A stretch of 64,000 nucleotides of DNA from an uncultured Gammaproteobacteria bacterium (GTDB lineage: Bacteria > Pseudomonadota > Gammaproteobacteria > GCA-002705445 > GCA-002716945), in NCBI GenBank assembly GCA_905479195.1, contig CAJQLO010000001.1, forward strand, positions 368,694 through 432,693, in the 5' to 3' direction. Numbering within the stretch: position 1 is the stretch's first letter; every line of letters begins with the position of its first letter. A program made the position numbers and the translations under genes. Below the pieces are notes generated by a model. The model was not told the DNA's origin and did no database searches. It was given only the letters and a program-made list of their open reading frames with translations. Positions 99 through 27,350 of this stretch are shown piece after piece.

Positions 99-371
99 AT
101 GGGATTTCTATTCGGTAAAACAGCTATGGGTACTTATGTGGTCGTGGCGTTCTGGGTAGCCTGTTACTACTTCTTCAGCGGTATGTTTCCAATGTGGCAT
201 TTTGCTGCTGGATCAATGCCTGGGTTAGCTGGTTGGCCTGTAGCACTATTAATAGGTTTTCTATTAATTGTTGCAAATATGATAAGTGTATACTTATTCA
301 TTAAGGTTGCTGGTAATCGACCATGGGAGTGGTTTGAAGATGGAGTCTACGGACCAGGAGATGAGGGGTAA
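99..371 (+). CDS. small hypothetical membrane protein (90 aa, two predicted TM helices, Trp/His-rich)
   Basis: A strong Shine-Dalgarno (AAGAGGAG) sits 8 nt upstream of the ATG, after an AT-rich non-coding leader. The protein has hydrophobic stretches VVVAFWVACYYFF and VALLIGFLLIVANMISVYLF. Codon usage is GC-richer than the bulk, like the neighbouring fadL-like/mtoX genes. I recognise no family. Confidence 0.45.
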   Translation: MGFLFGKTAMGTYVVVAFWVACYYFFSGMFPMWHFAAGSMPGLAGWPVALLIGFLLIVANMISVYLFIKVAGNRPWEWFEDGVYGPGDEG

Positions 372-575
372 ACGAATTTAACTATAGGTACTTAATTAGT
401 ACTTTATAGTTGGATCGTTTAATGTTTAGTTTACTAAGCGTTAAATGAAACAAACGATAAAAATGTTTTTATTGTAAATGGAATTATAGGGGGAAGGATT
501 GTTCTTTTATAGACATTGATGTCTAGTCCCCAAGTATAAACGTTATTTATTATATATATATAATGAGGAAAAAAT

Positions 576-2078
576 ATGAAAATTAATAGCAATTGGAAAC
601 TTGGAGCAGCGGTAGGTACAGCCTTATCGATGGGTTCAGGTGCAGCATTTGCCGGACCACATGGTTTCGATCTACACAACGTGTTTCACGGAGCATCAGC
701 CGCTATGGCCGGTACGAGTATTGCACATGTTGAAGATCCAGTATCAGCGGTTTTCGGTAACCCTGCAACATTAACAACTTACTACGGCGGTACTAACTTT
801 ATGTTTGGTGCTACGTTCTATATGCCGCGTGCTCGCATGTCGCATGATGGATCAGCTGGGTATGCAACAGGTGAAGCAACTAATTTAGTAAACATCACTG
901 GCGGCGCTACAGGTAACACTGCAGGGTCTTACCACTTTACTGCTACATCAAAAGCTGATGTATACGCAGTACCAACAGTGGCAGTAACTCAAGACTTAAC
1001 TGGTCTTGGTATTCCTGTCGTTCTTGGTGTTGGTGTATCAGCTACATCTGGTATCGGTGTGGATTATAAACATAATTCAAACTCTTTAGGTGCAGCGGCA
1101 GAGCTTATCAATTTAGGCGTTAACGCTGGTATTGGTATGTCTATGACGCCTAACTTAGATGTTGGTGTATCTGCAACAATTACTTATGCAATGTTAGAAG
1201 CTGGTTTAACAGGTTCTGGCGGCATGACTCATGACATTGGTTTCCGTGCAACAATGGGTGCGCGTATGAAAGTAATGCCTGGTTTAACAGTTGGTGCTTA
1301 CGTGCAAACTGAACAACCGCATGAATATGATAACTTACACGTAACATCTTTCCACGGCAATAATGCTTCGGCTTTAGGTGTAGCTACTGGCCTTGTTCAA
1401 AACCAGGCATATGTTAAATGTAACGGTACAGGTGGCAACGTTTGTAGACAAGATGTGAGAGTAGAGCAACCTATGAACATAGGTCTTGGTTTTGCTTTTG
1501 ACGGTCTAATGAACGGTAACTTGTTAGTTATGCTTGATGTAACACATAAAGCATGGTCTGACGCTAGATTCTTTAATGAATTCTACGAAGACCAAGAAGT
1601 CTACTCAGTAGGTCTTCAGTTAACTCAAGGTCCAATGAAATTTAGACTTGGATACGGTTATGCTGATGATCCTTTAAAGGATAAAGTTGCTGATGGTGTT
1701 CAAATCAAAACTATCGGTGGTGTAAACACTAATGGTAGTACTTATACATCTACAATGTATCCATTGTTTATGTCGTACTTCCAAGCTATGGAAACACCAG
1801 TAATTTATAAACATCGTATATCTGCGGGTCTTGGAATCGATGGATTCTTAGCTCCAATGTTAACGCTTGATACTCATGTTGCATTCCAACTTGAAGAAGA
1901 TAAGTGTTTCGGTGCTAATCAACTTGGAGTTGAATCAATCTATGCTGGCGGAAACGCAGCAGTAGCTGGTACAGCTTTAGCTGGCGGTTTAGTGGGTCAT
2001 GGCTGTGGAGCATTGGATCATACTAAAGCTACAGTATCTTCATTTCACCTTGGTGGATCTTTAACTTGGACTTTCTAA
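576..2078 (+). CDS. FadL/OmpP1/TodX-family outer-membrane channel for hydrophobic compounds (500 aa)
   Basis: The signal peptide ends in an AFA|GPHG cleavage site. The mature N-terminus (AGPHGFDLHNVFHGASAAMAGTSIAHVEDPVSAVFGNPATLT) follows the FadL N-terminal hatch pattern (AGFQLNE...AGxxxAADDASAxxxNPAxLT). The protein is Gly/Thr/Ala-rich with beta-strand periodicity and ends in a C-terminal aromatic residue (...SLTWTF). An RBS GAGGA lies upstream. Confidence 0.7.
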   Translation: MKINSNWKLGAAVGTALSMGSGAAFAGPHGFDLHNVFHGASAAMAGTSIAHVEDPVSAVFGNPATLTTYYGGTNFMFGATFYMPRARMSHDGSAGYATGEATNLVNITGGATGNTAGSYHFTATSKADVYAVPTVAVTQDLTGLGIPVVLGVGVSATSGIGVDYKHNSNSLGAAAELINLGVNAGIGMSMTPNLDVGVSATITYAMLEAGLTGSGGMTHDIGFRATMGARMKVMPGLTVGAYVQTEQPHEYDNLHVTSFHGNNASALGVATGLVQNQAYVKCNGTGGNVCRQDVRVEQPMNIGLGFAFDGLMNGNLLVMLDVTHKAWSDARFFNEFYEDQEVYSVGLQLTQGPMKFRLGYGYADDPLKDKVADGVQIKTIGGVNTNGSTYTSTMYPLFMSYFQAMETPVIYKHRISAGLGIDGFLAPMLTLDTHVAFQLEEDKCFGANQLGVESIYAGGNAAVAGTALAGGLVGHGCGALDHTKATVSSFHLGGSLTWTF

Positions 2079-2104
2079 GTTAACTAGAAGATAATAAAAA
2101 GAAT

Positions 2105-2136
2105 AGAGGGTCACTTGCTTCGGTAGGTGGCCCTCT
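2105..2136 (+). other. intergenic hairpin (10-bp stem AGAGGGTCAC / GTGGCCCTCT with one G-U) between the fadL-like gene and mtoX; there is no U-run, so it may be an RNA-processing or stability element rather than a terminator
   Basis: Inverted repeat read directly from the sequence. Confidence 0.3.
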
Positions 2137-2169
2137 TAAACTAAGCGAAACAAATAGGAGCGCGCAATT

Positions 2170-3540
2170 ATGAAAATAAGAAAACTTATGTCAACCGTAT
2201 ACGGTATGTTGATGTCAAGCTTTCTTGCTTTAGTGCTAGTCCCAACACATGTATTCTCTGATGAGACATGCATGTCACCATATATGGCTAAGATCGTGGG
2301 TCAAGAAGACTACGTCTATGTATGGACTTTAGGACAAGTAGGGGTAGGGGATGAACAAGATAAACTGGTAACAGTTGCTGTTAACCCTGCGTCGCCACAC
2401 TATGGCAATGTAATCGGACATACTTCTGTTGGTGGTCGTAATGAAGCACATCATTCTGGTTTTACAGATGATAGGCATTATTTATGGGCAGCTACATTAG
2501 ATACTGGAAAAATATTTATTTTTGATGTTCACACGAACCCATCTAAACCTAAACTTCATAAAGTTATAACTGACTTTACGAAAGCTAGTGGTGGTATCGT
2601 TGGACCACATACAACATATGCATTACCAGGAAGAATGATGATTTCTGGTCTTTCTAACAACCAAGACTTTGGTGGTAGAACAGCGCTTGTAGAATATACA
2701 AACGATGGTACATATGTAGCTACTTATGACATGCCAACTGACGGTAATTTAAACGGTGCTGTGAAAACAGGACAATTTGCTGACGGTTATGGTTATGACA
2801 TTCGTGCATTACCACGTAGAAATGTAATGATTACATCCTCATTTACTGGATGGAATAACTACATGATGAACCTTGGTAAATTAATGGGCGATGCAGATGC
2901 TATGGGACGATTTGGTAATACAGTCGTTGTTTGGGATCTTCATACTCGTAAACCAAAGAAAGTATTTGACGTACCAGGTGCACCTCTAGAAATTAGATGC
3001 GCATGGGGTTCATCAAACAACTATTGTTTCACAACAACAGCGCTTACTTCTCAAATATGGCTTATCTATGAAAAAGATAACGAATGGCATGCTGAGTCTG
3101 TAGGTACTATTGGTGATCCATCTAAAATTCCACTACCTGTTGATATTTCAATCACAGCTGATGATAAACATCTATGGGTAAACACTTGGAATGATGGAAT
3201 GACAAGAATATTTGATATCTCTGACCCACACAATGCTGTGGAAGTTAAAGCTCATAAAATTGGCGACCAAGTAAACATGCTATCTCAAAGCTGGGATGGA
3301 AATCGTATTTACTTCACAACTTCACTATTATCTAATTGGGATAAAGGTGATGTGCCAGATGTTGAGGGTCCACCACAATTTTTCAAAGCGTATGATCAAA
3401 AGGATAATGATTTAATTCATAAATTCACAATTGATTTCGCTGCAGAAAAACTAGGTATGCCTCATCAAATGAGATTCGGAGCATATTCGTTATATTCGAA
3501 AACAGCAGATAATAAAAATTTAGCAGAACTTAATCGCTAA
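2170..3540 (+). CDS. mtoX: SBP56-family selenium-binding protein / copper-dependent methanethiol oxidase, periplasmic (456 aa)
   Basis: Clear collinearity with SELENBP1/SBP56. LVTVAVNPASPHYGNVIGH...EAHHSGF matches LATVDVDPKSPQYCQVIHR...ELHHSGW. GKIFIFDVHTNPSKPKLHKVI matches [21 protein letters not shown]. There is a C-terminal RIYFTTSLLSNWDKG block. An N-terminal signal peptide and a good RBS (AGGAG) are present. Confidence 0.85.
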   Translation: MKIRKLMSTVYGMLMSSFLALVLVPTHVFSDETCMSPYMAKIVGQEDYVYVWTLGQVGVGDEQDKLVTVAVNPASPHYGNVIGHTSVGGRNEAHHSGFTDDRHYLWAATLDTGKIFIFDVHTNPSKPKLHKVITDFTKASGGIVGPHTTYALPGRMMISGLSNNQDFGGRTALVEYTNDGTYVATYDMPTDGNLNGAVKTGQFADGYGYDIRALPRRNVMITSSFTGWNNYMMNLGKLMGDADAMGRFGNTVVVWDLHTRKPKKVFDVPGAPLEIRCAWGSSNNYCFTTTALTSQIWLIYEKDNEWHAESVGTIGDPSKIPLPVDISITADDKHLWVNTWNDGMTRIFDISDPHNAVEVKAHKIGDQVNMLSQSWDGNRIYFTTSLLSNWDKGDVPDVEGPPQFFKAYDQKDNDLIHKFTIDFAAEKLGMPHQMRFGAYSLYSKTADNKNLAELNR

Positions 3541-3604
3541 ATTGTTGTCATAGTTATTAGACACCCTCATTGGTGGTAAATAACGTAAAATGGCTGTAAA
3601 CACT

Positions 3605-3638
3605 AGGTCGCTTACTTTGCTAAGCGGCCTTTTTTTTT
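3605..3638 (+). terminator. rho-independent terminator after mtoX
   Basis: Stem AGGTCGCTTA, loop CTTTGC, stem TAAGCGGCCT, then a run of nine T (followed by an A-run, so possibly bidirectional). Confidence 0.7.
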
Positions 3639-3692
3639 GGTAAAAAAAACTCTAAAAATTTACAATTAGTTGATTTGTGGTATGATTTTGAT

Positions 3693-5675
3693 ATGGAGAA
3701 ATTAAGGATATATTTACTACTTTTAGTAGTGTTTTTCATCAACCCGAGTTACGCACAAGAACAGAGTTATACATCGACGGTATTAGCACCTGGTTATAAC
3801 CAGCTTACCTTTGACGCACCTGTTCCTGGCTCATATGTAATACCGAGCTATATGCCTGCTTCTAATGGTGATGTAATAGATGTTGATGGCCTTACTAAGT
3901 CACTCCACGATATATATGATGATAAGATTGTACTATTGAATTTCATGTACAGTACTTGTACTGATGTTAATGGCTGCCCATTAGCAACAGCAGTGTTTCA
4001 TAAAATTAAAAATATACTTGATAAAGACCCTGTTATTGGAAAACAAGTAAGCATGATTAGCTTGAGCTTTGATCCTGAAAATGATTCACCTGATGTAATG
4101 AAACTCTATGGAGATGGAACAGATTCTGGCACAGTCGATTGGAAATTTTTAACCACTAACTCAATGAATGATTTGGACCCTATACTCAACAAGTATAGCC
4201 AGCGTATAATTAAAGAATATGATGAGAAAGGAAATTATATTGGTTCTATATCGCATATTCTCAGAGTGTTTCTGATTGATAAAGATAAGAATATAAGAAG
4301 TATTTACAGTGTTTCTTTTTTACATTCTGATGTTTTGATAAATGATATAAAAACACTTTTGCATCCCGAATCTCAAAACGGAACAATGGTAGTTGCTTCT
4401 ACTGTAAATGTTGTCCCATCCGGATCATCTCTTGCAAGGCCAGGTGATGCTAAAGAAGGTTATGAGAGCGGTGATTATGTTACAGATGCTCAGTCACTAG
4501 TAAGAACTGGTGTGGCAACAGATTTATATAAAATCGCTAATTCTCCAATACTGGGGCTGCCTGAATTAAAGATGAAAGAGGGTACTGACCTAACTAGAGA
4601 GAAAATTGCTTTAGGAAGAAAAATGTTTTTTGATAGAAGATTGTCTCACACAGATACAATTTCATGTGCAATATGTCATGTACCAGAAATGGGATTTGCT
4701 CATAATGAGCTTGCAACAGCCGTTGGTACCGAAGGAAGGTCTAATATAAGAAATGCGCCAACTATTTTAAACTCAGCATTATTAACACGTCTATTTCATG
4801 ATGGAAGAGAACACTCTTTAGAGAATCAAGTTTGGGGTCCTTTACTTTCGCATAAGGAAATGGCGAATCCTGCACCTGGATACCTAATTAAAAAGATTAA
4901 AAATATTCCAGACTATGATAATTTATTTGAAGAAGCATATAACACTGGTCCGTCTATTGATACAATCAGCAAAGCATTCGCTGCCTATCAGTATACGCTT
5001 CTAAGTGGCAATTCAGACTTTGATCGCTGGTATTATGGTGGTGAAAGAAATGCTATTTCTAATAGTGCTAAAAAAGGTTTTAAATTGTTTACTGGAAAAG
5101 CTGCATGTATTACATGCCATGTAATTGGGGATGATTATGCTTTATTTACAGATGAAAAACTGCATAACACAGGCATGGGTTTTAAAGCATCTATGCATGT
5201 AGAACCGCCTATGAAGAAAGTTACTTTAGTGCCAGGATTAACCATTGATATTGATACATCTTCCTATAGAGATAATGTGGCCTTTAAAGATGAGATTGCG
5301 CCAAATGATTTAGGTTTATATACAGTAACGCAAGATCCATATGATAGGTGGAAATTTAGAACAGCGAGTTTGCGTAACGTAGAGATTACCGGGCCATACA
5401 TGCATAATGGTGCATTACAGAATTTAAAAGATGTTGTGGAATTTTATAATAAAGGCGGGATTAAAGAATCTGGCAAGATGAAAAATGAGATGCTAAGTCC
5501 TTTAATGTTCCCTTTAAATTTATCTGAAAATGAGATGAATAATATTGTTGATTTCCTTAAAACTTTAACAGGTTCAAATGTTAATGAGCTTATCTTGGAT
5601 GCTAAGGCTGCACCTATTGGTGAGATATCACTAAATGATCCAAACTGGTTTCATGAAAATAAACCAAAATACTAA
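3693..5675 (+). CDS. fusion protein: N-terminal Sco1/SenC-like copper chaperone domain plus C-terminal MauG/di-haem cytochrome c peroxidase domain (about 660 aa; the start could be the upstream ATG at 3675)
   Basis: A signal peptide starts at MEKLRIYLLLLVVFFINPSYA. Residues ~80-230 carry the Sco1 pattern (LLNFMYSTCTDVNGCP...ISLSFDPENDSPDVMKLYG...HILRVFLIDKDKNIRSIY). The C-terminal half has two CxxCH haem motifs in CCP/MauG context (LGRKMFFDRRLSHTDTISCAICH... and GFKLFTGKAACITCH...YMHNGAL). Sco1/SenC and MauG genes follow mtoX in Hyphomicrobium as separate genes. Confidence 0.75.
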   Translation: MEKLRIYLLLLVVFFINPSYAQEQSYTSTVLAPGYNQLTFDAPVPGSYVIPSYMPASNGDVIDVDGLTKSLHDIYDDKIVLLNFMYSTCTDVNGCPLATAVFHKIKNILDKDPVIGKQVSMISLSFDPENDSPDVMKLYGDGTDSGTVDWKFLTTNSMNDLDPILNKYSQRIIKEYDEKGNYIGSISHILRVFLIDKDKNIRSIYSVSFLHSDVLINDIKTLLHPESQNGTMVVASTVNVVPSGSSLARPGDAKEGYESGDYVTDAQSLVRTGVATDLYKIANSPILGLPELKMKEGTDLTREKIALGRKMFFDRRLSHTDTISCAICHVPEMGFAHNELATAVGTEGRSNIRNAPTILNSALLTRLFHDGREHSLENQVWGPLLSHKEMANPAPGYLIKKIKNIPDYDNLFEEAYNTGPSIDTISKAFAAYQYTLLSGNSDFDRWYYGGERNAISNSAKKGFKLFTGKAACITCHVIGDDYALFTDEKLHNTGMGFKASMHVEPPMKKVTLVPGLTIDIDTSSYRDNVAFKDEIAPNDLGLYTVTQDPYDRWKFRTASLRNVEITGPYMHNGALQNLKDVVEFYNKGGIKESGKMKNEMLSPLMFPLNLSENEMNNIVDFLKTLTGSNVNELILDAKAAPIGEISLNDPNWFHENKPKY

Positions 5676-5681
5676 GGTTAT

Positions 5682-6203
5682 ATGAAAAAATTATTATCGA
5701 TATTTGTTTTACTGCCTACGCTTTTTTTTACATATAATTTAAATGCATCTGGCTACTTAATGGACCCTATGCCTAGCCATGAAAGAGCTCCAGAATTTAG
5801 TTTGATAGGCATGGATGAAAAAGTCCATACGTTAAAAAGCTTAGAAGGAAAATTCTTGTTAGTAAATTTTTGGGCTACTTGGTGTAATCCTTGTAAAGCT
5901 GAGATGCCTACCTTAGAAGCTATACACAAAAGATTTGATAATGAAAAATTCACTGTTATAGGAATTCATGTTGGACCAGGACCTGAAAATATTCGAAATT
6001 ATTTAGATATAAGCCCTGTGTCTTTTCCAATTTTTATTGATATGGATTTAGAGTATGACTGGGGAGTTCCTGGATTGCCGACAACATTTTTGATTAGCCC
6101 AGAAGGTAACATGTTATATAGAGCAGTAGGGAAAAGAGATTTTTCTTCTCCAGATATGGAATCATTTTTTATTAAGTTAGTAGATGAACACTTTGGAAAA
6201 TAA
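5682..6203 (+). CDS. periplasmic TlpA/ResA-family thiol:disulfide oxidoreductase (thioredoxin fold, 173 aa)
   Basis: Signal peptide plus the WATWCNPC active-site motif (a WCxxC thioredoxin motif in TlpA context). Separated by 6 nt from the upstream gene. Confidence 0.8.
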   Translation: MKKLLSIFVLLPTLFFTYNLNASGYLMDPMPSHERAPEFSLIGMDEKVHTLKSLEGKFLLVNFWATWCNPCKAEMPTLEAIHKRFDNEKFTVIGIHVGPGPENIRNYLDISPVSFPIFIDMDLEYDWGVPGLPTTFLISPEGNMLYRAVGKRDFSSPDMESFFIKLVDEHFGK

Positions 6204-6207
6204 TACT

Positions 6208-7005
6208 TTATAGTTTAAATAAAAAAACTTCTGAAAGATTATTACTATTTGTATTCCCATAATATCTTATTAAATTTTTATTTTCTAAAAATATTTTTTT
6301 ACTGATTACATTTGATATTTCTTTAAAGTAAAATTTTGTAAAATTATATTCAGCATCATTAGATCTGGCGTACTCTTTAACTACTTTCTTGTCTTTTGTA
6401 AAAATAGTTCCACGCTTTATGCCTTCAGCAAATATTTTACCTATCTTTCCCTTTATGATAATTGTCCCAGATAGCATATCATTACAAGCATAATCACCTA
6501 TATTACCCTCTATAATTACATTACCTCTCCGCATTCTCTCAATGGAATTATTTCCAACATTACCTTTTACATATAAGAAACCATCAACTATACCAACATT
6601 TCCATGATTAGTTTTCCCACCTGTATAGTCACCAGAGTTTCCATATATAAATATAGAGCCTCCTTTAATTCCAGATGCTGCATAATCTAGTGCATTACCA
6701 TATAATATAAGTTTTCCAGAAAGCATTTGTTCGCCAAATGAATAACCAACATTTCCATGAACGGTAATATTAATATTATTTAACTCTTTGCCGATATTAT
6801 CCATTAAATCAACTGAAGATTGGATAATAATGTTTTTTATATCATTACCCTTTATGCTGAAAAGCTCTTTAACTTTAAACTGTTTATTTCCATAAGATAT
6901 AATCTGAGATGAAAGCCTAGATATATCTTTATAAGAATTAGATAAGAATGACATATCTATCCTATATTTTATTTTCTTCTTTAGTTTTAGTATCACTGGA
7001 TTCAT
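6208..7005 (-). CDS. fhcC: formyltransferase/hydrolase complex subunit C (FwdC/FhcC-like beta-helix protein)
   Basis: Repeated GN(V/I)G..G beta-helix motifs (HGNVGYSFG, YGNALDYAASG, YGNSGDYTGG, KGNVGNN, EGNIGDYAC) typical of FwdC. 4-nt ATGA overlap with fhcD. Confidence 0.75.
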   Translation of the reverse strand: MNPVILKLKKKIKYRIDMSFLSNSYKDISRLSSQIISYGNKQFKVKELFSIKGNDIKNIIIQSSVDLMDNIGKELNNINITVHGNVGYSFGEQMLSGKLILYGNALDYAASGIKGGSIFIYGNSGDYTGGKTNHGNVGIVDGFLYVKGNVGNNSIERMRRGNVIIEGNIGDYACNDMLSGTIIIKGKIGKIFAEGIKRGTIFTKDKKVVKEYARSNDAEYNFTKFYFKEISNVISKKIFLENKNLIRYYGNTNSNNLSEVFLFKL

Positions 7006-7898
7006 TTCATGACTTTCCTTAAATGGAAATGATATTGCCCTAATTTACCACCATAATTTCCTGCAGATATGGCAACTATATCTTTTTTTATTTTCATTTT
7101 AGAAATACTTTGTATCGAAGTTTTTATTGCCTCATTGATATCATCAAATGTCAGTCCATTGATAACTATTTCCATCACACAATTTACATTAGCTGGTAGA
7201 GTACTCTTTGTAATACTCTTTAGTGTTGGACAAAAAGCGTCATTAGTAGATGCTATTAAAGCCTTGTATTTTGAACCAACTTTTGATCCAGACCTCACAA
7301 CCCCGCCAGGAAAAGGAGTTATAATATTTGGCTGATTTTTGATTGAATTTATTGCTGTCTCACAGGCAGACAAGCATGATTTTCTATTAGTACTCAATAC
7401 TAAAAAATTACCACCACCTATTGCTGGTACACGTGCAGTTGATTCTTCACAAAGAAATTCTCCATCCATGACTGGTATACGCCAAAATCTTCTGTCTTGT
7501 ATTTTTTTTGATATTTGATGGCCATCACCAAAGTATCTTAAGTTTTTACCTAAAGGAATTACATCTTCTCCGATCATCCCAGAAAATATAGCGGTTGTTG
7601 GGCAAGTGAGAATACACTGACCAACCCTGACCTCTAATTGCTTTTCTAGCTGACTTCTAGACATTGAAAATAGTAAGATTGAATAGCCTGGCCTGTTATC
7701 AGGTGTTTCTGACGATTTTAATTGTTTTTCGATGCCAGCTTCTATGCCGCATGCAATAACTGATGTAGCAAATCCAGTAAAAGAGTCACAGGCATGTTTT
7801 GCCCATTTTAAATTATCTGCTGTTACGATTATACGACTGGCTTTCATATTAAAAGCTTCGGCAAACGTATTATCTATTTTTATACCATTATAAATCAT
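7002..7898 (-). CDS. fhcD: formylmethanofuran:tetrahydromethanopterin formyltransferase (Ftr/FhcD)
   Basis: N-terminus MIYNGIKIDNTFAEAFNMKASRIIVTA matches the Ftr N-terminus (xINGVEIEDTFAEAFxMxGTRVLITA). Length 298 aa. Embedded in the fhc operon. Confidence 0.85.
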   Translation of the reverse strand: MIYNGIKIDNTFAEAFNMKASRIIVTADNLKWAKHACDSFTGFATSVIACGIEAGIEKQLKSSETPDNRPGYSILLFSMSRSQLEKQLEVRVGQCILTCPTTAIFSGMIGEDVIPLGKNLRYFGDGHQISKKIQDRRFWRIPVMDGEFLCEESTARVPAIGGGNFLVLSTNRKSCLSACETAINSIKNQPNIITPFPGGVVRSGSKVGSKYKALIASTNDAFCPTLKSITKSTLPANVNCVMEIVINGLTFDDINEAIKTSIQSISKMKIKKDIVAISAGNYGGKLGQYHFHLRKVMK

Positions 7899-9553
7899 TG
7901 CTTTCTTTTATATTTGCAATCATTAACATAAACAGGGCTGCCTACCAGGCTATTCATTTCATCATCGCTTAATATATAGTTATCTAATTTCATTGTATGA
8001 TATTTTTCAAAAAACTTACCTAAATCTTTTTCAATTGATTTATCATAATCTGGCTTAACAGTATGGGTTTTGCCCCAAACATATTCTTTTATTTTTCCAT
8101 TTTCTACAACTATTTTTCCATCTTTAATAACTAGAGATGGATGAGCAAACATCTCTTCTATATCTTTTTTATTTTTATCATAAACGGTTATGTCTGCATC
8201 AGATCCCTCAGATAGATTACCTTTCTCTTTTAACCCTAAAATTTTTGCGGGCGCTGATCTTGTCATGATGGAAATTTCGTTTAATGTATATTCTCTCTTA
8301 AGGGTGTGAAGAATAGTATGATTAAGAATTTCTTTTGGTAGTTGATTTAAAATATCATTACGAAAAGTTTTATCCATTAATAATTTAATCAAATGAGGAT
8401 ACGAGGTAAATGGTGCCCCATTAGGATGATCTGTAGTTAAAAAAACTTTCCAAGGATCTTCGGCTAATAAAAATATTTCTAAACCTATAGCCCATTGAAG
8501 AGCATTTACAAAACTTTTATCTTTATATTTAAAAGGAACTACGCCGCACCCTGCGTCACATTCTATGTCCATACACATCCATTTATTTGGATGAGCATGA
8601 TTATGGTTTCTATATTGAGACATACTATCACCAGACATAGTTACAGTTTGTCCAAACATTATTTGTCCTACATCACAAGTTAGATTCTCTATCTTATTTA
8701 AGTAGTTTGAAATTTCTACTGCTGCTGAAGAAAAACCCTTATCTCCATTATTGCCATAACTTTGAAATTGTATATGAGTTAAGTGAATTGGTAATCCATT
8801 CGCAGCTTTTATAGTTTCTATTGTCGATAGAAAATTTCCAGGAATACCTAAGTTACTGCAATGTACGTGTAATGGGTGAGGAACTCCCAAATCATATATT
8901 GCTCTTGTGAGCTTCTCCACTATTTCTCTTGGTGTTATACCATAGTATTTAGATTTCTCATCAACATTTAAGGCTCTTTGATTAAACTTAAATGCATTAA
9001 TGCCACCAGGATTAACAACTTTTATTCCCAAGGATTGTGTTGCACTTAAAATAAAAGCAACATAATCATTTATTGTTGATTGACTAGATTTCTTCCTTAG
9101 CAAATCTAAAAAGTAATCATCATTTCCTAGTAAAGCGTAACCGCCTTTATCAATAAATGGAATATCTGACATCTCTGCATGAGCTTGCCTTGCATTTATA
9201 GGTAGTAGAGCTGGTTCAAAACAAGTTGTATAACCCATTTCTATATACTTTAATCCAGTTTTAAGAGTAGATGGGGCAATAATAGCCGAAGAATCATATC
9301 CGGGTTCTTTTTCGTTATGAAATTCTTCCAGCATTAATCTTGCAATGTTAACCTTTCCTCCACCAATATGAGTATGAAGATCAATAGCTCCTGGCATTAT
9401 TATTTTATCTGAGCAATTTATGATTTTATCAACCTTAGACCTAACATTTTTCTTATCAATAATTTTTCCATCTTGAATAAAAATATCTTTTTTTACATTA
9501 GATATTTTGTTATGAGGGTCGTATACATTTCCAGATTTTAATTGTGTAATCAA
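7895..9553 (-). CDS. fhcA: formylmethanofuran dehydrogenase subunit A homologue (amidohydrolase superfamily; FhcA)
   Basis: 552 aa with an amidohydrolase metal-binding signature (PGAIDLHTHIGGG). Position between fhcB and fhcD. Confidence 0.8.
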   Translation of the reverse strand: MITQLKSGNVYDPHNKISNVKKDIFIQDGKIIDKKNVRSKVDKIINCSDKIIMPGAIDLHTHIGGGKVNIARLMLEEFHNEKEPGYDSSAIIAPSTLKTGLKYIEMGYTTCFEPALLPINARQAHAEMSDIPFIDKGGYALLGNDDYFLDLLRKKSSQSTINDYVAFILSATQSLGIKVVNPGGINAFKFNQRALNVDEKSKYYGITPREIVEKLTRAIYDLGVPHPLHVHCSNLGIPGNFLSTIETIKAANGLPIHLTHIQFQSYGNNGDKGFSSAAVEISNYLNKIENLTCDVGQIMFGQTVTMSGDSMSQYRNHNHAHPNKWMCMDIECDAGCGVVPFKYKDKSFVNALQWAIGLEIFLLAEDPWKVFLTTDHPNGAPFTSYPHLIKLLMDKTFRNDILNQLPKEILNHTILHTLKREYTLNEISIMTRSAPAKILGLKEKGNLSEGSDADITVYDKNKKDIEEMFAHPSLVIKDGKIVVENGKIKEYVWGKTHTVKPDYDKSIEKDLGKFFEKYHTMKLDNYILSDDEMNSLVGSPVYVNDCKYKRKQ

Positions 9554-9562
9554 GATTTCTTC

Positions 9563-10813
9563 CTATGCTAAGTTATCTAATATATTTTGCGTAGACGGTA
9601 ATTTAATATCTCTAATTTTTTTTAATGCGACAGAGACCACTTTATCAGTTCTAAACATTATACCTTCATAGTCAATTCCAGGTATACCTACAGGTATAAA
9701 AATATCAGGTGTCGAAGTAAAAGTAGTATTTGGATGACCTAAAACTATATTGGTAATATCGCTATTAATCTTTAATTTCCCAGAATTAATAGTTGAAACA
9801 TGAATTACCACATCCACATTTTTTTCATCTATTAATTTTTGGCTATTGAATGCATTACGGTCATGTTTAAAAGTCCCGTCCATATGTTTTATGCTAGATG
9901 GAAATCCAGTCATCCATGTTAATGCTTGCGAAGAAGTTTCGTCAGCGAGAATTCCTGATATTGGCATACATGCCGCTCTAGATGATACGTTAAGATCAAC
10001 AATATACTTACAAATAGCAGCAATTATTTTTTTTGGGTTAAGAGTTTTGATGAAATCTGAAGCAGTCCATGTTGCGACTATATATTTGGATTTATTAAGA
10101 ATATTTTTAATCTTAATAAGCTCGCTTTTTTTCAGTCCTTTTAATAACTTTAAGTCATCAGTAGCAAGTAATTTTAAAAAATCACCAACTAGATTTAAGT
10201 CTAGCTTGATGTTTGTGATATTACATTTTCCTTTCCCTTTAATATTTTTAACAATCTTTGCGGAAAAATTACCAATCAATATAATCTCTTTTTTGCTTGT
10301 AGGGAATAAGCTATTTTTGGGAGTTAATACTTTATCGATTAATCTTGGTGTTTTAGTCAAAACTTCATTACCAAATATAATAATGGCATCAGCCCGATTT
10401 TTAGTTTCAGTCAATGAGGTAGCCATATACCCAGTTCTTTGAACAACCCCAATATTTTGATATAAAAATTTAGAATTAACATGATCAACTATACAGTTTC
10501 GTTGTGATGCAAAACTTAATATTGATCTTAGTCCGGCTAATTCTACCCCATGATTTAAAATTAATGTTTCATTATGCCCTTTAATAAGATTTGAAATTTT
10601 TTTTAATGCTTCTGACAGCTTAACTACTTTTTTACCTACCATAGGCATGACTATACTTTTTGTATTTAGGTTATAAGATTCAATTTTTTTAGCACAAACA
10701 GTATTTTTTTGGTCAACCTTATATTGGTCATTTGTCGTTGTTACACTTATATCATCACAATGCATAGAGCAGAAAGGGCATGTTAAGTTTTTAATATTAT
10801 TTTGGCTAGTCAT
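9563..10813 (-). CDS. fhcB: formylmethanofuran dehydrogenase subunit B homologue (FhcB)
   Basis: The N-terminal LTCPFCSMHCDD...C motif aligns with the FwdB VVCPFCGTLCDD Fe-S motif, and a TKNRADAIIIFG block matches FwdB VKNRADVVVYWG. 416 aa. Confidence 0.8.
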   Translation of the reverse strand: MTSQNNIKNLTCPFCSMHCDDISVTTTNDQYKVDQKNTVCAKKIESYNLNTKSIVMPMVGKKVVKLSEALKKISNLIKGHNETLILNHGVELAGLRSILSFASQRNCIVDHVNSKFLYQNIGVVQRTGYMATSLTETKNRADAIIIFGNEVLTKTPRLIDKVLTPKNSLFPTSKKEIILIGNFSAKIVKNIKGKGKCNITNIKLDLNLVGDFLKLLATDDLKLLKGLKKSELIKIKNILNKSKYIVATWTASDFIKTLNPKKIIAAICKYIVDLNVSSRAACMPISGILADETSSQALTWMTGFPSSIKHMDGTFKHDRNAFNSQKLIDEKNVDVVIHVSTINSGKLKINSDITNIVLGHPNTTFTSTPDIFIPVGIPGIDYEGIMFRTDKVVSVALKKIRDIKLPSTQNILDNLA

Positions 10814-10896
10814 ATGGATATATTCTACATTATAACCATGTCACTTTGTACATAAAAGGTATAAAATATGGACGTGAATATACTATATCTATCACT

Positions 10897-11850
10897 ATGA
10901 ATAAGACTGTAAAAGAATTAAGTATCACTAGTCCATCCAGGTTACATCTTGGATTTTATGGTTTTGATGATAGCTATGGATATAAGTATGGGAGCATGGG
11001 ACTTGCAATTAATGCATATAAAACCTCTTTATCCATAAAAAAGTCAAAAATTTTTTCAAGCAATCTGCCAAAAAAGTTTACAACTCCAATTTTAAAATAT
11101 TTGAAGCTAAAAAAAGTTAGTAGTAATTTTGAAATTAACTTATTAAGTCAGCCGCCTAGCCATATAGGCTTAGGGTCTGGTTCACAACTATCATTATGTT
11201 TAGGAAAATCAATATTAATGCACCTTGGTATCAAGGCAAGTATCAGTGATATTGCTCGCATTTATGATAGAGGGGAAAGATCAGGCACAGGTATAAGAAT
11301 ATTTGAGAGAGGAGGTTTTGTTGTCGATGCTTGTAAAAAAGCAAACATGTTACCCGAGACAATGTTTAACTCTAAATTTCCTAGTAAATGGAAAATCATA
11401 CTTATTAATGATAATCAGCTAAAGGGAGCTTCTGGTGAGAAAGAAGTTAAATTTTTTAATAAGAATATTAAATTATCAAGACAGTATAAGGCCGAATTAT
11501 CACATATTGCCCTCAGAGGAATATTACCTTCAGTAATTTATAAGGATTTTGATAATTTTTCAAAAAATATTTCAGAATTTCAAAGGATCACATCTTTATT
11601 CTATAAGGATAAGCAGAAAGGTATTTTTTTAAGCCCTGATATCTCTAACATCATGGAATATATAGGAAATTATGATAATTTAGGGATGGGACAGAGCTCA
11701 TGGGGGCCAATGTCTTATATATTCGTTGAGTCTAGTTTGCATGCTAAAGAGCTTATAAGTATTATCCAAAATAAATTTAATGTGTATAATAACCTAACAT
11801 TTAAAATTGCAAGCTCATGGAATTCGGGCTATAAAATTAGTTACAAATAA
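10897..11850 (+). CDS. mptG: GHMP-kinase-fold protein, probable beta-ribofuranosylaminobenzene 5'-phosphate synthase (MptG-like; H4MPT biosynthesis)
   Basis: Start taken at MNKTVKEL (the ORF track extends to 10846). There is a GHMP-like Gly-rich loop (HIGLGSGSQLSL). The position is divergent from fhc, as for orf4/mptG in methylotroph H4MPT clusters. Confidence 0.55.
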   Translation: MNKTVKELSITSPSRLHLGFYGFDDSYGYKYGSMGLAINAYKTSLSIKKSKIFSSNLPKKFTTPILKYLKLKKVSSNFEINLLSQPPSHIGLGSGSQLSLCLGKSILMHLGIKASISDIARIYDRGERSGTGIRIFERGGFVVDACKKANMLPETMFNSKFPSKWKIILINDNQLKGASGEKEVKFFNKNIKLSRQYKAELSHIALRGILPSVIYKDFDNFSKNISEFQRITSLFYKDKQKGIFLSPDISNIMEYIGNYDNLGMGQSSWGPMSYIFVESSLHAKELISIIQNKFNVYNNLTFKIASSWNSGYKISYK

Positions 11851-11871
11851 ACAAGTAATGGAGATCTGATC

Positions 11872-12762
11872 ATGGAAAAACCTTTTTTATTACATATGAT
11901 AACACCTGAAAAGAACATCAGCCCTTTTGATGCGAATATGGCTTTTGACGCAGGTTGGGACTCTGTAATCCCATATACCAATATAGGAATGGATGAAATG
12001 CAAGGAATCGTTCAGGACACAATCTTTTCAAGATCCCCGTCTGCATTAAAGAGAACTGGAATTTTTATTGGTGGCAGAGATACACATATGGCGATGGATA
12101 TGATTGAAGAAGCAAAAAAGCATATGGTCCCACCATTTGAAGTACCTGTTTTTGCTGATCCTAGTGGAGCATTTACAACTGCAGCAGGAATGGTTGCCAT
12201 AACTGAAAAAGCTCTTAAAGACAAATTCTCTGAAAAATTTACAGGTAAGAAAATAGTAATCTTAGGTGGCACAGGACCTGTAGGTGTTGCCTCAGCTGTT
12301 ATCAGTGCTAAAGCAGGAAATAGTGTGTTATTAGTAGGAAGGAGTTTAGATAAAGCAGAGAGCATAGCAAAGATATGCAATGAGAAATACGGCTCAAAAT
12401 CTGTTACAGGAGCAGTTGACTCTGAGAAGAAATCATTTTTAATAGATGCTGATATTGTTTTTAATACTGGAGCAGCAGGCATTCAGTTGATGGATGACGA
12501 ATTAATCAAGAACGCAGTAAACTTAAAGATATGTGCAGATGTGAATGCTGTTCCTCCGGCAGGAATATCAGGAATAGATGCGATGGATAATGTTGTTCCA
12601 ATGAAGAACTCTAGCTCTGGCTGTTTTGGAATAGGAGCTTTAGCGATAGGAAACATTAAATATAAGTCTCAACATGATTGTCTAAAGCTAATGTATAGTT
12701 GCGATAAGCCGGTATACTTACATTTTGAACAAGCGTTTGAGTTTGCACAAAAAAATGTCTGA
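11872..12762 (+). CDS. mtdB: NAD(P)-dependent methylene-tetrahydromethanopterin dehydrogenase (MtdA/MtdB family)
   Basis: 296 aa. A Rossmann GxGxxG motif (ILGGTGPVGVASA) sits mid-protein and the N-terminal domain is typical of MtdA/B. Context is mptG upstream and mch downstream. Confidence 0.65.
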   Translation: MEKPFLLHMITPEKNISPFDANMAFDAGWDSVIPYTNIGMDEMQGIVQDTIFSRSPSALKRTGIFIGGRDTHMAMDMIEEAKKHMVPPFEVPVFADPSGAFTTAAGMVAITEKALKDKFSEKFTGKKIVILGGTGPVGVASAVISAKAGNSVLLVGRSLDKAESIAKICNEKYGSKSVTGAVDSEKKSFLIDADIVFNTGAAGIQLMDDELIKNAVNLKICADVNAVPPAGISGIDAMDNVVPMKNSSSGCFGIGALAIGNIKYKSQHDCLKLMYSCDKPVYLHFEQAFEFAQKNV

Positions 12763-13826
12763 TGATTAATGCTGTTGTTGTTATAAATTCAGACACAACA
12801 TATTTAGAAGAAAAATTTACATCCCTGGGGATCAAGGTTTTTGCTTTTGACCAATATTGTCATAATAACCTAGATAAAATTCAAGATATTACATATCTAG
12901 AATCATTTATAAACAATATCCTTATTGATTATCAGAATGTTGGCCTATTATATGGGTCTGGACTAGAAGACAAGCCTGAAATTTATGATTGCTTAAGACG
13001 AAAGTTAAGTATATTGGGTAATGATCCAAGAATTATTTCAAAGTGTAATGATTTAAGGCTGCTAACTAACACATTAGATGAGTGCAATCTCAAGTTTCCA
13101 GAATATGTAAACAATACTATAGGAATAAAAAAAAGATACCTATCAAAACCATTCAATAGTTCTGGAGGATATAATATAAACTTCAGTGAAAAATATAAAA
13201 AAAATCACTACCTTCAGGAGTATCTTGAAGGAGAAACATATTCAATATCATTCTTCAAGCATAAAGACAATTTTATTTTCTTAGGATTTAATAAGTTACT
13301 ACATCTTCGAAATTTTGACCCACATCCTTTTATACATGCAGGAGCATTAACGACTAATAAATTTTTAGAATCTACTAATATAATTAATTCATTTAAAAAA
13401 TTATCAGAAAAACTTTCAATGAATGGTTATAATAGTATTGATTTTAAAATACTAAATGAAGAAGTTTTTGTACTTGATATCAATCCGAGAATTACATCTA
13501 CATTCAAAATTTATAACGATACTTATAATAATGATTTATTGCATCTTATAATAAACCCTGGCCTTGATAAAAAACTAGAAAGTCATAATAATAATAAGTA
13601 TGCTTTCGTCCATATGTTTGTAAAAGAAGAGTATAAGTTTAAGAATTTTTTTATGGATGATCCTGAGTTTGTAAATCTCCCTAATGAAGGACAACATGTT
13701 GGGAAAAATCAGCCTTTATTATCAATATATCTAAATTCATTTTCAAATTTAGATTTAATGACAAGATTAAAAGAAAAAATTTCAATTACAACAAATCTTT
13801 ATAACTGCTATGATATAGATATCTAA
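12762..13826 (+). CDS. ATP-grasp family ligase (H4MPT/methylofuran biosynthesis, orf5/orf7/orf17-like)
   Basis: 354 aa with ATP-grasp architecture. Start overlaps the mtdB stop (ATGA). One of three ATP-grasp genes in the island. Confidence 0.5.
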   Translation: MINAVVVINSDTTYLEEKFTSLGIKVFAFDQYCHNNLDKIQDITYLESFINNILIDYQNVGLLYGSGLEDKPEIYDCLRRKLSILGNDPRIISKCNDLRLLTNTLDECNLKFPEYVNNTIGIKKRYLSKPFNSSGGYNINFSEKYKKNHYLQEYLEGETYSISFFKHKDNFIFLGFNKLLHLRNFDPHPFIHAGALTTNKFLESTNIINSFKKLSEKLSMNGYNSIDFKILNEEVFVLDINPRITSTFKIYNDTYNNDLLHLIINPGLDKKLESHNNNKYAFVHMFVKEEYKFKNFFMDDPEFVNLPNEGQHVGKNQPLLSIYLNSFSNLDLMTRLKEKISITTNLYNCYDIDI

Positions 13827-13829
13827 ATT

Positions 13830-15706: not shown

Positions 15707-15711
15707 GCCAT

Positions 15712-26826: not shown

Positions 26827-27164
26827 CGAGAGTCAACTATATGATCGCTGTGTAAGCAGAGGAAAGTCCGGGCTCCATAGGCAATAGTGCCAGGTAACGC
26901 CTGGGAAACGTGAGTTTACGGAAAGTGCTACAGAAAATAACCGCTAATATTTTATATTAGTAAGGGTGAAAAGGTGAGGTAAGAGCTCACCACATACGAG
27001 GTAACAAGTATGGTTGAGGCAAACCCCACTAGGAGCAAAGCAAATTTATAGCATTTTGTCAGCCTAAGACACGCTATATGGTAAGCTGCTAGAGGTTTTT
27101 GGCGACAAAAATCCCAGATTAATGATCATACATGACAGAACCCGGCTTATCGGTTGGCTCTTAG
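26827..27164 (+). ncRNA. rnpB: RNase P RNA (bacterial type A, M1 RNA)
   Basis: Contains the universal P4 sequences GAGGAAAGTCCGGGCTCCATAGG and ACAGAACCCGGCTTATCGG, plus the GGTAACGCCTGGG, GTAAGGGTGAAA.GGTG.GGTAAGAGC.CACC and GGCAAACCCCAC..GGAGCAA blocks in the canonical order. The 5' end GAGAGTCAAC pairs with the 3' GTTGGCTCT as P1. Confidence 0.9.
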
Positions 27165-27350
27165 ACTACTTTTTAATTATAAAATCACCATATCAAGATA
27201 AGCTCTTGTTAAATATAAGTATTTGATTAATATAGACTATTTTTAGTATATTCTATGTATTTATGAAGCTAAAGCCTTGCATACATCAATAAAAAGTCAT
27301 ATAGTGTTGATATATGGTAATTTATGTAAGATTGTGGGGAATAATGGTAA

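Follow-up and report, generated by a model that had tools for sequence, protein, structure and literature searches.

The mtoX locus and its gene neighbours

The window, by which we mean the whole 64,000-nucleotide stretch of DNA that was analysed, carries a SCO1/MauG fusion gene directly downstream of mtoX and on the same strand, followed by a gene for a TlpA-like thioredoxin, and the three genes are in tight synteny. The genes and intergenic features of the locus are as follows.

99-2078, + strand: two conserved upstream ORFs, one of 90 aa for a membrane protein (99-371) and one for an OMP-like protein of 500 aa (576-2078), recognized by synteny with loci L005-L008
2170-3540, + strand: mtoX, methanethiol oxidase of the SBP56 family (NCBIfam NF052453), the presumed client, with Trp228 and Trp390
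3548-3603, + strand: near-invariant unclassified element in the mtoX 3′ region, its core identical in six related loci
3605-3638, + strand: intrinsic-terminator-like hairpin with T9, between mtoX and the fusion (terminator scan, RNA fold)
3693-5675, + strand: sco1/mauG fusion gene (ORF list, sequence, Pfam SCO1-SenC and CCP_MauG), with an alternative in-frame TTG at 3675
5682-6203, + strand: TlpA/ResA-like periplasmic thioredoxin with the motif WCNPC (Pfam, NCBIfam), starting 6 nt past the fusion stop codon

The mtoX product scores 693 bits against the NCBIfam methanethiol oxidase equivalog NF052453, above the cut-off of 650, and the preliminary description of this DNA was right to place the fusion beside mtoX. 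The TlpA-like gene matches the AhpC/TSA and Redoxin models of Pfam and is syntenic in close relatives. H4MPT formaldehyde-oxidation genes adjoin the locus, which fits an MtoX that releases formaldehyde. The genes read in the surroundings of the fusion, from 99 to 16590 of the window, include no methylamine dehydrogenase (mau) genes, and no MbnP-like gene is directly adjacent to the fusion, its neighbours being mtoX and tlpA. Searches of Pfam, NCBIfam and PDB sequences gave no match to the upstream 500-aa OMP-like protein. The host of this fusion copy is an uncultured low-GC marine gammaproteobacterium, and the closest MAGs to it encode MtoX proteins that are 83-88% identical.

The window has a single copy of the conserved element that lies between mtoX and the fusion (3548-3603), and an Rfam search of this intergenic region gave only sub-threshold chance matches, with no family for the element. 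The adjoining hairpin folds at -15.9 kcal/mol, and compensatory changes in relatives preserve its stem. Because an intrinsic-terminator-like hairpin stands between the two genes, co-transcription of mtoX and the fusion is not guaranteed.

One polypeptide with a Sco domain and a MauG-type domain

The fusion ORF runs without interruption on the + strand from either TTG 3675 or ATG 3693 to position 5675, giving 666 or 660 aa. The ATG is the start matched by a 660-aa homologue (P0001), which points to a protein of 660 aa; the frame of 666 codons given in the preliminary description is unbroken as claimed, but that count begins at the TTG. Pfam finds both a Sco1 fold and a MauG-like di-haem domain in the single polypeptide (SCO1-SenC PF02630, E 1.9e-13; CCP_MauG PF03150, E 8.5e-47), in agreement with the earlier reading, and the motifs quoted in its favour (FDPENDSPDV, HILRVFLIDKD, CTDVNGC and two CxxCH) are all present. 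The parts of the protein are listed below.

3693-3755, + strand: Sec-type signal peptide (MEKLRIYLLLLVVFFINPSYA/QEQ), read by inspection of the translation
3780-4382, + strand: Sco1/SenC thioredoxin-fold domain, about aa 30-230 (PF02630, PDB sequence matches to Sco proteins, AF2, Foldseek)
3957-3977, + strand: Cys89-x5-Cys95 (CTDVNGC), putative metal/redox site, from alignment to B. subtilis Sco and 4hde
4254-4256, + strand: His188, equivalent of the third Cu ligand of Sco proteins, aligned with the conserved His of B. subtilis Sco
4383-4547, + strand: low-confidence linker and N-terminal extension of the MauG-like module (pLDDT <50 for aa 232-270)
4548-5627, + strand: MauG-type di-haem cytochrome c peroxidase-family domain (PF03150, PDB matches to bCCPs, MbnH and MauG)
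4665-4679, + strand: haem 1 (peroxide-binding) attachment motif C325-A-I-C328-H329 (CAICH), aligned with MauG C31/C34/H35
4797-4799, + strand: His369 at the inter-haem Trp position (MauG W93, bCCP W94), FHDGRE against FWDGR in alignments to bCCPs and MauG
5106-5120, + strand: haem 2 attachment motif C472-I-T-C475-H476 (CITCH), aligned with MauG C201/C204/H205
5445-5447, + strand: Tyr585, equivalent of MauG Tyr294, axial ligand of the six-coordinate haem, from residue-level alignment to 3L4M

Hydrophobic N-terminal signal sequences can be read by eye from the translations, and in the AF2 prediction of the fusion an N-terminal helix (residues 2-15) gives way to a stretch of low confidence. Of the whole single-chain model, only the Sco domain is predicted with confidence (pLDDT >90), the haem regions being poor in a model without cofactors. 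Foldseek matches the Sco domain to human SCO1 with a TM of up to 0.86; the TlpA–ScoI complex 4txo is also present among the fold matches. Alignment to the Sco proteins of B. subtilis and B. anthracis (4hde) places a 2-residue insertion, NG, inside the CxxxC motif. The preliminary description had read the site as Cx5C and the alignment upholds that reading, the motif of the fusion departing from the CxxxC of canonical Sco proteins. His188 does not vary in alignment A2, and 137/137 aligned relatives have His at this position.

The linker and N-terminal extension contain the motif PGDxKxGYExxDYxT (nt 4440-4496), which is invariant or nearly so in A2. We considered this motif as a docking element specific to fusions and rejected the idea, as it also forms the mature N-terminus of many unfused MauG-like partners.

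The residues of the di-haem domain were compared with those of MauG using the 3L4M sequence, which was checked to be 100% identical. The alignment equates H329 with H35, N354 with N66, Q379 with Q103, P383 with P107, E389 with E113, H476 with H205, T566/P568 with T275/P277 and Y585 with Y294, and the Ca site and distal pocket are conserved. Tyr585 aligns with the Met ligand of bCCPs; it is invariant in A2 and Tyr in 111/115 relatives, and judging from these alignments it would ligate the six-coordinate haem as part of a His–Tyr pair. The distal His position of bCCPs is Thr in the window protein and mostly Ile or Val in relatives, and neither the His–Met electron-transfer haem nor the distal His of the peroxidatic haem that typify canonical bCCPs is found here. 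The inter-haem position is His in 113/122 MtoX-linked relatives. Among NCBIfam models, the MbnH model TIGR04039 scores 207.8 bits (cut-off 362.85) and the MauG model TIGR03791 scores 205.3 bits (cut-off 443.85), both below their thresholds.

The fusion is genuine and of a described type

A missed stop codon or a frameshift near 4380-4560 could in principle have merged adjacent sco1 and mauG genes, and the separate sco and mauG genes of R. pomeroyi, which overlap by 4 bp, show how a single-base error might do so. An independent ENA metagenome contig (L093) contains the same 1983-nt ORF at 96.5% nucleotide identity, differing by 63 synonymous and 7 non-synonymous changes and by no indel, and it keeps the frame through the junction, where six substitutions fall. 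Both domains are present at full length in 120/120 homologues among the matches listed. Across 80 sampled species genomes, the fusion is found at 48 mtoX loci, in some cases on complete chromosomes, and separate genes are found at 31. With the fusion also already published, we regard an assembly artefact as so improbable that we reject it: the ORF is a genuine, selected single gene. Two of the checks proposed in the preliminary description, an inspection of the junction and a search for the same fusion in related genomes, both came out in favour of the fusion.

The preliminary description had also stated that described mtoX loci keep Sco1/SenC and MauG as separate genes, and this does not hold. 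SCO1/MauG fusions downstream of mtoX have been described (Eyice et al., ISME J 2018, Table S7; Kröber & Schäfer 2019), and mto-clusters 1 and 2 of Methylophaga thiooxydans have the order mtoX, SCO1/MauG fusion, tlpA and are induced on DMS (Kröber & Schäfer 2019), with signal peptides reported on the fusions (Kröber & Schäfer). The window gene is an ordinary member of this SCO1/MauG fusion type, published in 2017-2019 and common; the fusion itself is not new, but documented and frequent, and it is widely conserved across Gammaproteobacteria. Separate arrangements, even divergently transcribed ones, are common too, and the covalent link therefore cannot be essential. Joining the two genes is convenient in evolution but is not required by the mechanism. 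A single ancient fusion event was rejected, as a neighbour-joining tree of Sco domains, a rough tree with no support values, needs at least eight switches between fused and unfused states.

The Cx5C motif and co-variation with MtoX Trp228

We considered whether Cx5C is a peculiarity of the window gene and rejected this. The motif occurs in 120/120 homologues among the matches listed, in 78/80 genome loci and in 132/150 cluster representatives, and distant stand-alone Cx5C Sco proteins (35-37% identity) are also found in SBP56–SCO–MauG triads. By comparison of these sequences, Cx5C is the mark of the whole MtoX-linked Sco subfamily, fused or unfused, including the unfused SPOA0270 of R. pomeroyi. 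The motif had been called unusual, which is correct relative to the canonical CxxxC, but within the MtoX-associated Sco subfamily it is the rule. We found nothing relevant on a Cx5C Sco variant when we searched the literature.

Trp228 and Trp390 of the window MtoX map to W223 and W386 of R. pomeroyi, and W223 is one of the two Trp residues proposed for a TTQ-like cofactor, a proposal that is itself indirect. In the genome loci scored with MauG, MtoX has Trp at the SSFTGW position, the one that corresponds to W223. Scans of each collection turned up roughly 550 or more mtoX loci. The counts that follow come from loci that are phylogenetically related and therefore not independent: 44 metagenome loci with MauG have Cx5C wherever the motif is readable and Trp at the SSFTGW position of MtoX in 43, with one unscored, while in 14 loci whose MtoX lacks this Trp (K, L, F or M instead) the Sco is of the canonical CxxxC kind and the available sequence shows no MauG. 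The reciprocity is imperfect: the Trp is also present in three CxxxC loci, and several Trp-bearing mtoX genes have no Sco or MauG within 5 kb.

A proposed role in MtoX maturation

We propose that the fusion is probably a periplasmic two-domain accessory protein of the MtoX cluster, of the described SCO1/MauG type, that acts in MtoX maturation. The TlpA-like thioredoxin next door would keep the Sco domain reduced, and the Sco domain would bind copper and pass it to newly exported MtoX. The di-haem domain would react with H2O2, which MtoX is reported to produce, and generate a high-valent haem oxidant; this oxidant could convert MtoX Trp228, possibly with Trp390, to a Cu ligand or a protein-derived cofactor. 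Fusing the genes may fix the stoichiometry at 1:1 and bring the two maturation steps to one place. Purified MTO contains Cu according to the literature. Coupled copper insertion and oxidative maturation of MtoX, as suggested in the preliminary description, is plausible, is an already published hypothesis and finds indirect support in the co-variation described above, and we infer MtoX maturation as the function of the fusion. Our literature searches found no paper on MtoX maturation and no methanethiol oxidase/MauG structure paper. In MauG and bCCPs the inter-haem Trp is believed to relay electrons from haem to haem; since the fusion has His at this position, bis-Fe(IV) chemistry like that of MauG cannot be assumed.

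Two other functions were weighed against maturation. The di-haem domain could instead be a peroxidase that clears periplasmic H2O2 made by MtoX, with the TlpA-recharged Sco domain feeding it electrons or serving as a thiol peroxidase, and with no maturation involved. By raw sequence score the best PDB matches of the domain are canonical bCCPs (134 bits, against 82 for MauG), but the individual residues point the other way, as Tyr585 stands where bCCPs have Met, a published discriminator between MauG-type and canonical enzymes, and the distal His of bCCPs is absent. MtoX is reported to make H2O2, DMS induces catalase and peroxiredoxin (Kröber & Schäfer 2019), and the gene downstream of the fusion has its AhpC/TSA and Redoxin matches; however, MtoX loci without MauG exist and would produce equal H2O2, and MauG tracks a specific MtoX Trp and a specific Sco variant, neither of which a general detoxifier would need. 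We therefore consider detoxification quite improbable.

Somewhat less improbable, although still unlikely in our view, is that the Sco domain works as a redox switch or thiol:disulfide oxidoreductase instead of chaperoning copper, acting for example on the invariant DETC Cys of the mature MtoX N-terminus or on oligomerization cysteines, with Cx5C representing a lost Cu site. The fold of Sco proteins is that of thioredoxin, a disulfide switch is known in them (title of 1xzo), the canonical CxxxC spacing is not kept, and a TlpA-like reductant is encoded next door, yet the Cu-site His conserved in all 137 relatives is a residue that a pure oxidoreductase would not need. On the client side, DETC is invariant in MtoX alignments A1 and A4, and cysteines of R. 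pomeroyi MTO are reported to matter for oligomer formation; against this, the purified enzyme contains Cu, and the Sco of MtoX loci that lack MauG is still the canonical CxxxC type, as would fit a Cu-delivery role shared by both variants. Maturation of MtoX, with copper delivery by the Sco domain, is the reading that we prefer.

A more specific form of the maturation hypothesis can be built on the co-variation, which we offer as a tentative and rather doubtful possibility. The MtoX-linked MauG-like enzymes, fused or not, may be a distinct clade with His for the inter-haem Trp and an obligate Cx5C Sco partner, building the MtoX copper site through oxidation of Trp228, in the manner of the kynurenine Cu ligand that MbnH makes in MbnP and not of a classical TTQ, while MtoX lineages without the Trp might dispense with MauG and revert to, or retain, a CxxxC Sco.

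This analysis adds to the published picture that the haem domain belongs to the MauG type, with a Tyr ligand and without a distal His, but has His between the haems, that the Cx5C Sco co-occurs with MauG, and that no MauG is nearby in the scored MtoX loci without Trp228. As a 'Rosetta stone', the fusion supports the view that Sco and the MauG-like enzyme share a client. Three features seen across the family, namely the Cx5C hallmark, the inter-haem Trp-to-His change and the co-variation of MauG, Cx5C Sco and Trp228, could guide work on MtoX maturation, as they name a specific target residue and mutants. The question they touch is how a globally important methanethiol oxidase, and by extension the human SELENBP1-type enzymes, gains copper and any protein-derived cofactor.

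Comparison with known systems

MbnH, the MauG-like enzyme that makes the kynurenine Cu ligand of MbnP (6E1C), resembles the haem domain as a di-haem enzyme of the MauG type that acts on a periplasmic copper protein. Among NCBIfam models it matches the fusion best (208 bits), as it does among PDB entries in the C-terminal haem region, and it has the same Tyr; the fusion differs in falling below the family cut-off of 362.85 and in having mtoX and tlpA as neighbours. In a search with a chimeric query for a residue alignment around the inter-haem position, MbnH (6e1c) was absent among the alignments listed. The literature names BthA as the exception among MauG-type enzymes, which otherwise conserve the inter-haem Trp; the window fusion has His. 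Paracoccus denitrificans MauG, which acts in TTQ biosynthesis (3L4M), shares the di-haem c fold, the His–Tyr second haem, the lack of a distal His on the first haem, the Ca2+ site and the Gln/Pro/Glu distal pocket. In contrast to MauG, the fusion has His369 for W93 and Ala470 for W199, its partner is an SBP56 protein, and its haem domain is joined to Sco.

Canonical Sco1/SenC/ScoI proteins (B. subtilis Sco, human SCO1, B. japonicum ScoI–TlpA) have in common with the fusion the thioredoxin fold, two Cys and one His, and a TlpA-like thioredoxin. They differ in having CxxxC where the window protein has Cx5C (CxD[VI]NGCP), and the client of the fusion is presumably MtoX and not cytochrome oxidase CuA; the window protein is also soluble and fused to a haem enzyme.

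The modules of the fusion are orthologous to separate genes in Hyphomicrobium sp. VS and in R. pomeroyi DSS-3, where they are SPOA0270 (SCO) and SPOA0271 (MauG-like). R. pomeroyi shares the Cx5C motif (CGDVNGCP), the inter-haem His, the Tyr ligand and the position downstream of mtoX, but has two polypeptides, each with its own export signal, from genes with a 4 bp overlap, and its MauG-like protein is without the PGDxKxGYE N-terminal motif found in the fusion. Closest in kind are the SCO1/MauG fusions of M. thiooxydans, each a single gene directly downstream of mtoX and followed by a TlpA-like gene, with signal peptides and a presumed role as MtoX maturation factors. Compared by description, they show no difference in kind from the window fusion, which stands beside H4MPT genes, whereas the M. 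thiooxydans clusters are listed with pdo/sqr genes.

The sco1/mauG frame and its surroundings

The fusion gene lies in a cluster with mtoX, its presumed client, and the features used here are as follows.

2170-3540, + strand: mtoX, methanethiol oxidase (SBP56 family)
3548-3603: near-invariant ~55-nt element (GTCATAGTTATTAGACACCCTCATTGGTGGTAAATAACGTAAAATGGCTGTAAAC), directly 3′ of the mtoX stop codon
3605-3638 (3605-3630 plus T9): intrinsic terminator between mtoX and sco1/mauG, 10-bp stem, -15.9 kcal/mol
3675 (TTG) or 3693 (ATG) to 5675, + strand: sco1/mauG, a single frame with no interruption
5682-6203: TlpA/ResA-like thioredoxin gene (Pfam, NCBIfam), 6 nt 3′ of the fusion
6208-16590: H4MPT set comprising fhcC, fhcD, fhcA, fhcB, a beta-RFAP synthase-like gene, mch and an MptN-like ligase gene

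The preliminary description had placed a Sco1/SenC copper chaperone and a MauG-like di-haem peroxidase in one uninterrupted frame of 666 codons. The frame is uninterrupted, though the figure of 666 counts from the upstream TTG, and the ATG start gives 660 aa, the same length as the 99% identical database homologue P0001. All of the quoted motifs were found in the ORF, and Pfam places both domains in the same polypeptide (SCO1-SenC, E 1.9e-13; CCP_MauG, E 8.5e-47), with a weak cytochrome c match at the C-terminus. The N-terminus, MEKLRIYLLLLVVFFINPSYA ahead of QEQ, is by inspection a candidate Sec signal peptide. No frameshift or indel was found at the domain junction (~4380-4560): in L093, an independent metagenome contig from ENA, the 1983-nt ORF recurs with its frame intact, at 96.5% nucleotide identity and with 70 differences (63 synonymous, 7 non-synonymous, no indels), and six of its substitutions fall within the junction. 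Both Pfam domains, full length and two CxxCH motifs are present in 120/120 listed homologues (50-99% identity), and a fusion sits directly 3′ of mtoX in 48 of 80 species-representative genomes sampled via their MtoX, complete chromosomes such as that of Methylotuvimicrobium sp. KM1 among them. Because these three lines agree, the fused frame is real, and an assembly or sequencing artefact is excluded.

The mtoX product scores 693 bits on the NCBIfam methanethiol oxidase equivalog (cut-off 650). Its predicted mature N-terminus opens with DETC (2260-2271), a motif that does not vary across our MtoX alignments and that served as the search pattern for both collection scans. Past the tlpA-like gene come fhcABCD, mch and other H4MPT-pathway genes, sensible neighbours for a formaldehyde-releasing enzyme, and the closest MAGs show the same synteny. 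The genes for H4MPT-linked formaldehyde oxidation and for cofactor biosynthesis form a full set at 6208-16590, directly beside the mtoX cluster. On the other side, 5′ of mtoX, are a 90-aa membrane ORF (99-371) and a 500-aa protein (576-2078), both syntenic in the related loci L005-L008. The 500-aa protein had no match in Pfam, NCBIfam or PDB; its C-terminus resembles an outer-membrane barrel (…SLTWTF), which makes it a candidate for an uncharacterised methanethiol or DMS channel. The window also holds a bacterial class A RNase P RNA at 26829-27165 (Rfam RF00010, 294.8 bits).

Between mtoX and the fusion, six related MAG loci (L003-L008) share the core of the 3548-3603 element without a change, though their proteins are only 64-88% identical. 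The element occurs once within the window, matches no Rfam family, and may be a structured 3′-UTR or regulatory site. The terminator that follows differs among relatives through compensatory changes that keep the stem. Its position would uncouple or attenuate the expression of the enzyme and its presumed maturation factors, and suggests that mtoX transcripts are abundant while the maturation genes are expressed at lower read-through or separately. A promoter-like site at 3659-3686 (TTTACA-16-TATGAT, extended -10 TG) ends 7 nt 5′ of the ATG at 3693; promoter-like matches across the region were no more frequent than in shuffled sequence. The site is statistically indistinguishable from background, and its use would leave the sco1/mauG mRNA nearly leaderless.

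Fused and separate arrangements

Separate sco and mauG genes were found in 31 of the 80 genome loci, in some as sco then mauG on the same strand, in others with mauG divergent 5′ of mtoX and sco 3′ of it; in R. pomeroyi the two genes share a 4-bp overlap. A rough NJ tree of the Sco domains requires at least eight fused/unfused switches, and the fusion is thus evolutionarily labile. Given this repeated switching and the separate loci, the covalent link is a sign of functional partnership and cannot be a mechanistic requirement. The linker (residues 232-270) has low confidence in the AF2 model. A conserved inter-domain motif, PGDxKxGYExxDYxT (aa 250-264, window 4440-4496), was considered as a fusion-specific element and ruled out, since many MauG-like partners that are not fused carry it at their mature N-terminus; it is absent from R. 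pomeroyi SPOA0271. In effect, the fusion swaps the MauG-like protein's own signal peptide for a Sco domain and a short spacer.

The Cx5C motif of the Sco domain

The Sco domain is modeled with pLDDT >90 by AF2 and matches human SCO1 with a Foldseek TM of up to 0.86. When aligned to the Sco proteins of B. subtilis and B. anthracis, it reads CTDVNGCP where these have CETI--CP and CQTV--CP, a two-residue insertion within CxxxC, with the His ligand kept as His188. The Cx5C spacing called unusual in the preliminary description was therefore read correctly, but it is not special to this gene: a CxD[VI]NGCP-like Cx5C occurs in 120/120 listed homologues and in 78/80 genome loci, and because fused and separate relatives share it alike, including SPOA0270 of R. 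pomeroyi, which is unfused (CGDVNGCP), the spacing characterises the family. The Sco domain was also searched exhaustively against 1.84 billion cluster representatives, which gave 514 clusters at E<=1e-10; Cx5C is present in 132 of the best 150, the majority of them stand-alone proteins of 220-290 aa. Two distant stand-alone Cx5C Sco proteins (35-37% identity) also lie within SBP56–SCO–MauG triads.

The di-haem domain

By sequence score, the di-haem domain is closest to canonical peroxidases (134 bits), followed by MbnH (117) and MauG (82), and it falls below the NCBIfam cut-offs for both MbnH (208 against 363) and MauG (205 against 444). Published work separates MauG-type from canonical enzymes by His–Tyr as opposed to His–Met ligation. 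We aligned the domain with MauG, after checking that the sequence used matches the 3L4M PDB chain at 100% identity. Tyr585 aligns with MauG Tyr294 and with the Met ligand of bacterial cytochrome c peroxidase (bCCP), while the bCCP distal His position is Thr. The Ca site (N354, T566, P568) and distal pocket (Q379, P383, E389) of MauG are also kept. Two tryptophans differ: substrate-facing MauG Trp199 is Ala, and the inter-haem Trp (MauG W93, bCCP W94, FWDGR) is His369 (FHDGRE, window 4797-4799). A cited review describes this Trp as highly conserved in MauG-type and canonical enzymes, with BthA the known exception; among MtoX-linked MauG-like relatives, fused and unfused, the position is His in 113 of 122 and Trp in one only. 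Since the ligand and pocket residues match, the scores lie below the NCBIfam cut-offs and the inter-haem Trp is His, we class the domain, from its residues, as MauG-type, yet neither MauG sensu stricto nor MbnH. With His in place of Trp, MauG-like bis-Fe(IV) chemistry should not be assumed.

Co-variation of MauG, Cx5C and MtoX Trp228

At four alphaproteobacterial plasmid loci (two Skermanella, two Microvirga), SCO lies after mtoX, and no MauG gene occurs within 4-5 kb. The Sco motif there is canonical CxxxC (CGDVCP, CGDLCP, CGDICP), and in place of the Trp of MtoX SSFTGW stand K, K, F and L. This residue is Trp228 in the window (2851-2853) and Trp223 in R. pomeroyi, one of two Trp proposed in the literature for a TTQ-like cofactor. 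Two further CxxxC representatives follow this pattern: P0209 adjoins SBP56, MauG was not found within 6 kb, and the neighbouring MtoX carries Met at this position; P0215 accompanies an MtoX that has Lys there, but its contig is too short to tell whether MauG is present. When Trp-less MtoX proteins were used as seeds for a scan of metagenomes, 44 loci with MauG came up, in which the motif is Cx5C wherever readable and the SSFTGW Trp is present in 43 (one unscored), along with 11 CxxxC loci, in which MauG is found in 0/11 and the Trp is absent in 8 and retained in 3. Phylogenetically, these counts are not independent, and some of the contigs involved are short. MauG implies Trp and Cx5C, and Trp loss implies no MauG; the three CxxxC loci retaining Trp mean that the relation is not perfectly reciprocal. 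Of the computational evidence, this co-variation (noted at loci L002, L083-L085, L091, L092, L094, L101-L104, L109, L114, L138, L161) most directly supports the view of Trp228 as the target of the MauG-like module and of the Cx5C Sco as a variant adapted to MauG-containing systems.

A proposed model for MtoX maturation

Our literature search found no experiment on MtoX maturation. We consider it most likely that MtoX is matured by the TlpA-like, Sco and di-haem modules together. All three proteins would be exported, and the TlpA-like thioredoxin would hold Cys89 and Cys95 in the reduced state, for which TlpA–ScoI (PDB 4txo), among the fold matches, is a precedent. The Sco domain would then bind Cu and deliver it to MtoX, and the di-haem domain would use H2O2, a product of MtoX, to turn Trp228 by oxidation into either a quinone-type cofactor or, as in MbnH/MbnP, a Cu ligand.

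The di-haem domain could instead detoxify peroxide, a role that we disfavour given that it has the Tyr ligand, that it lacks the distal His, and that MauG co-varies with Cx5C and Trp228. Similarly, a Sco domain acting purely in thiol redox is made less likely by the invariant His and by the Cu present in methanethiol oxidase.

Comparison with described mtoX clusters

The fusion itself is confirmed, and the interpretation given in the preliminary description is partly supported. The premise that described mtoX loci keep the two genes separate is incorrect, because fused loci had already been published. SCO1/MauG fusions were described by Eyice et al. (ISME J 2018) and restated in their Figure 2 legend, and in their Supplementary Table S7 the column "SCO1/MauG fusion?" is answered "yes" for many entries, among them Leucothrix mucor, several Methylobacter, Alteromonadaceae and Dechloromarinus. 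The gene, from a marine gammaproteobacterium that is uncultured and low in GC, is thus of an ordinary kind already published among the accessory genes of mtoX clusters, and the residual interest is modest: the family-wide Cx5C, the His in place of the inter-haem Trp, and the co-variation with Trp228. M. thiooxydans has two clusters in the order mtoX, SCO1/MauG fusion and tlpA-like, identical to that of the window, with reported signal peptides and induction on DMS, and pre-MtoX, once exported, is proposed there to be processed by the fusion (Kröber & Schäfer 2019, PMC6548844).
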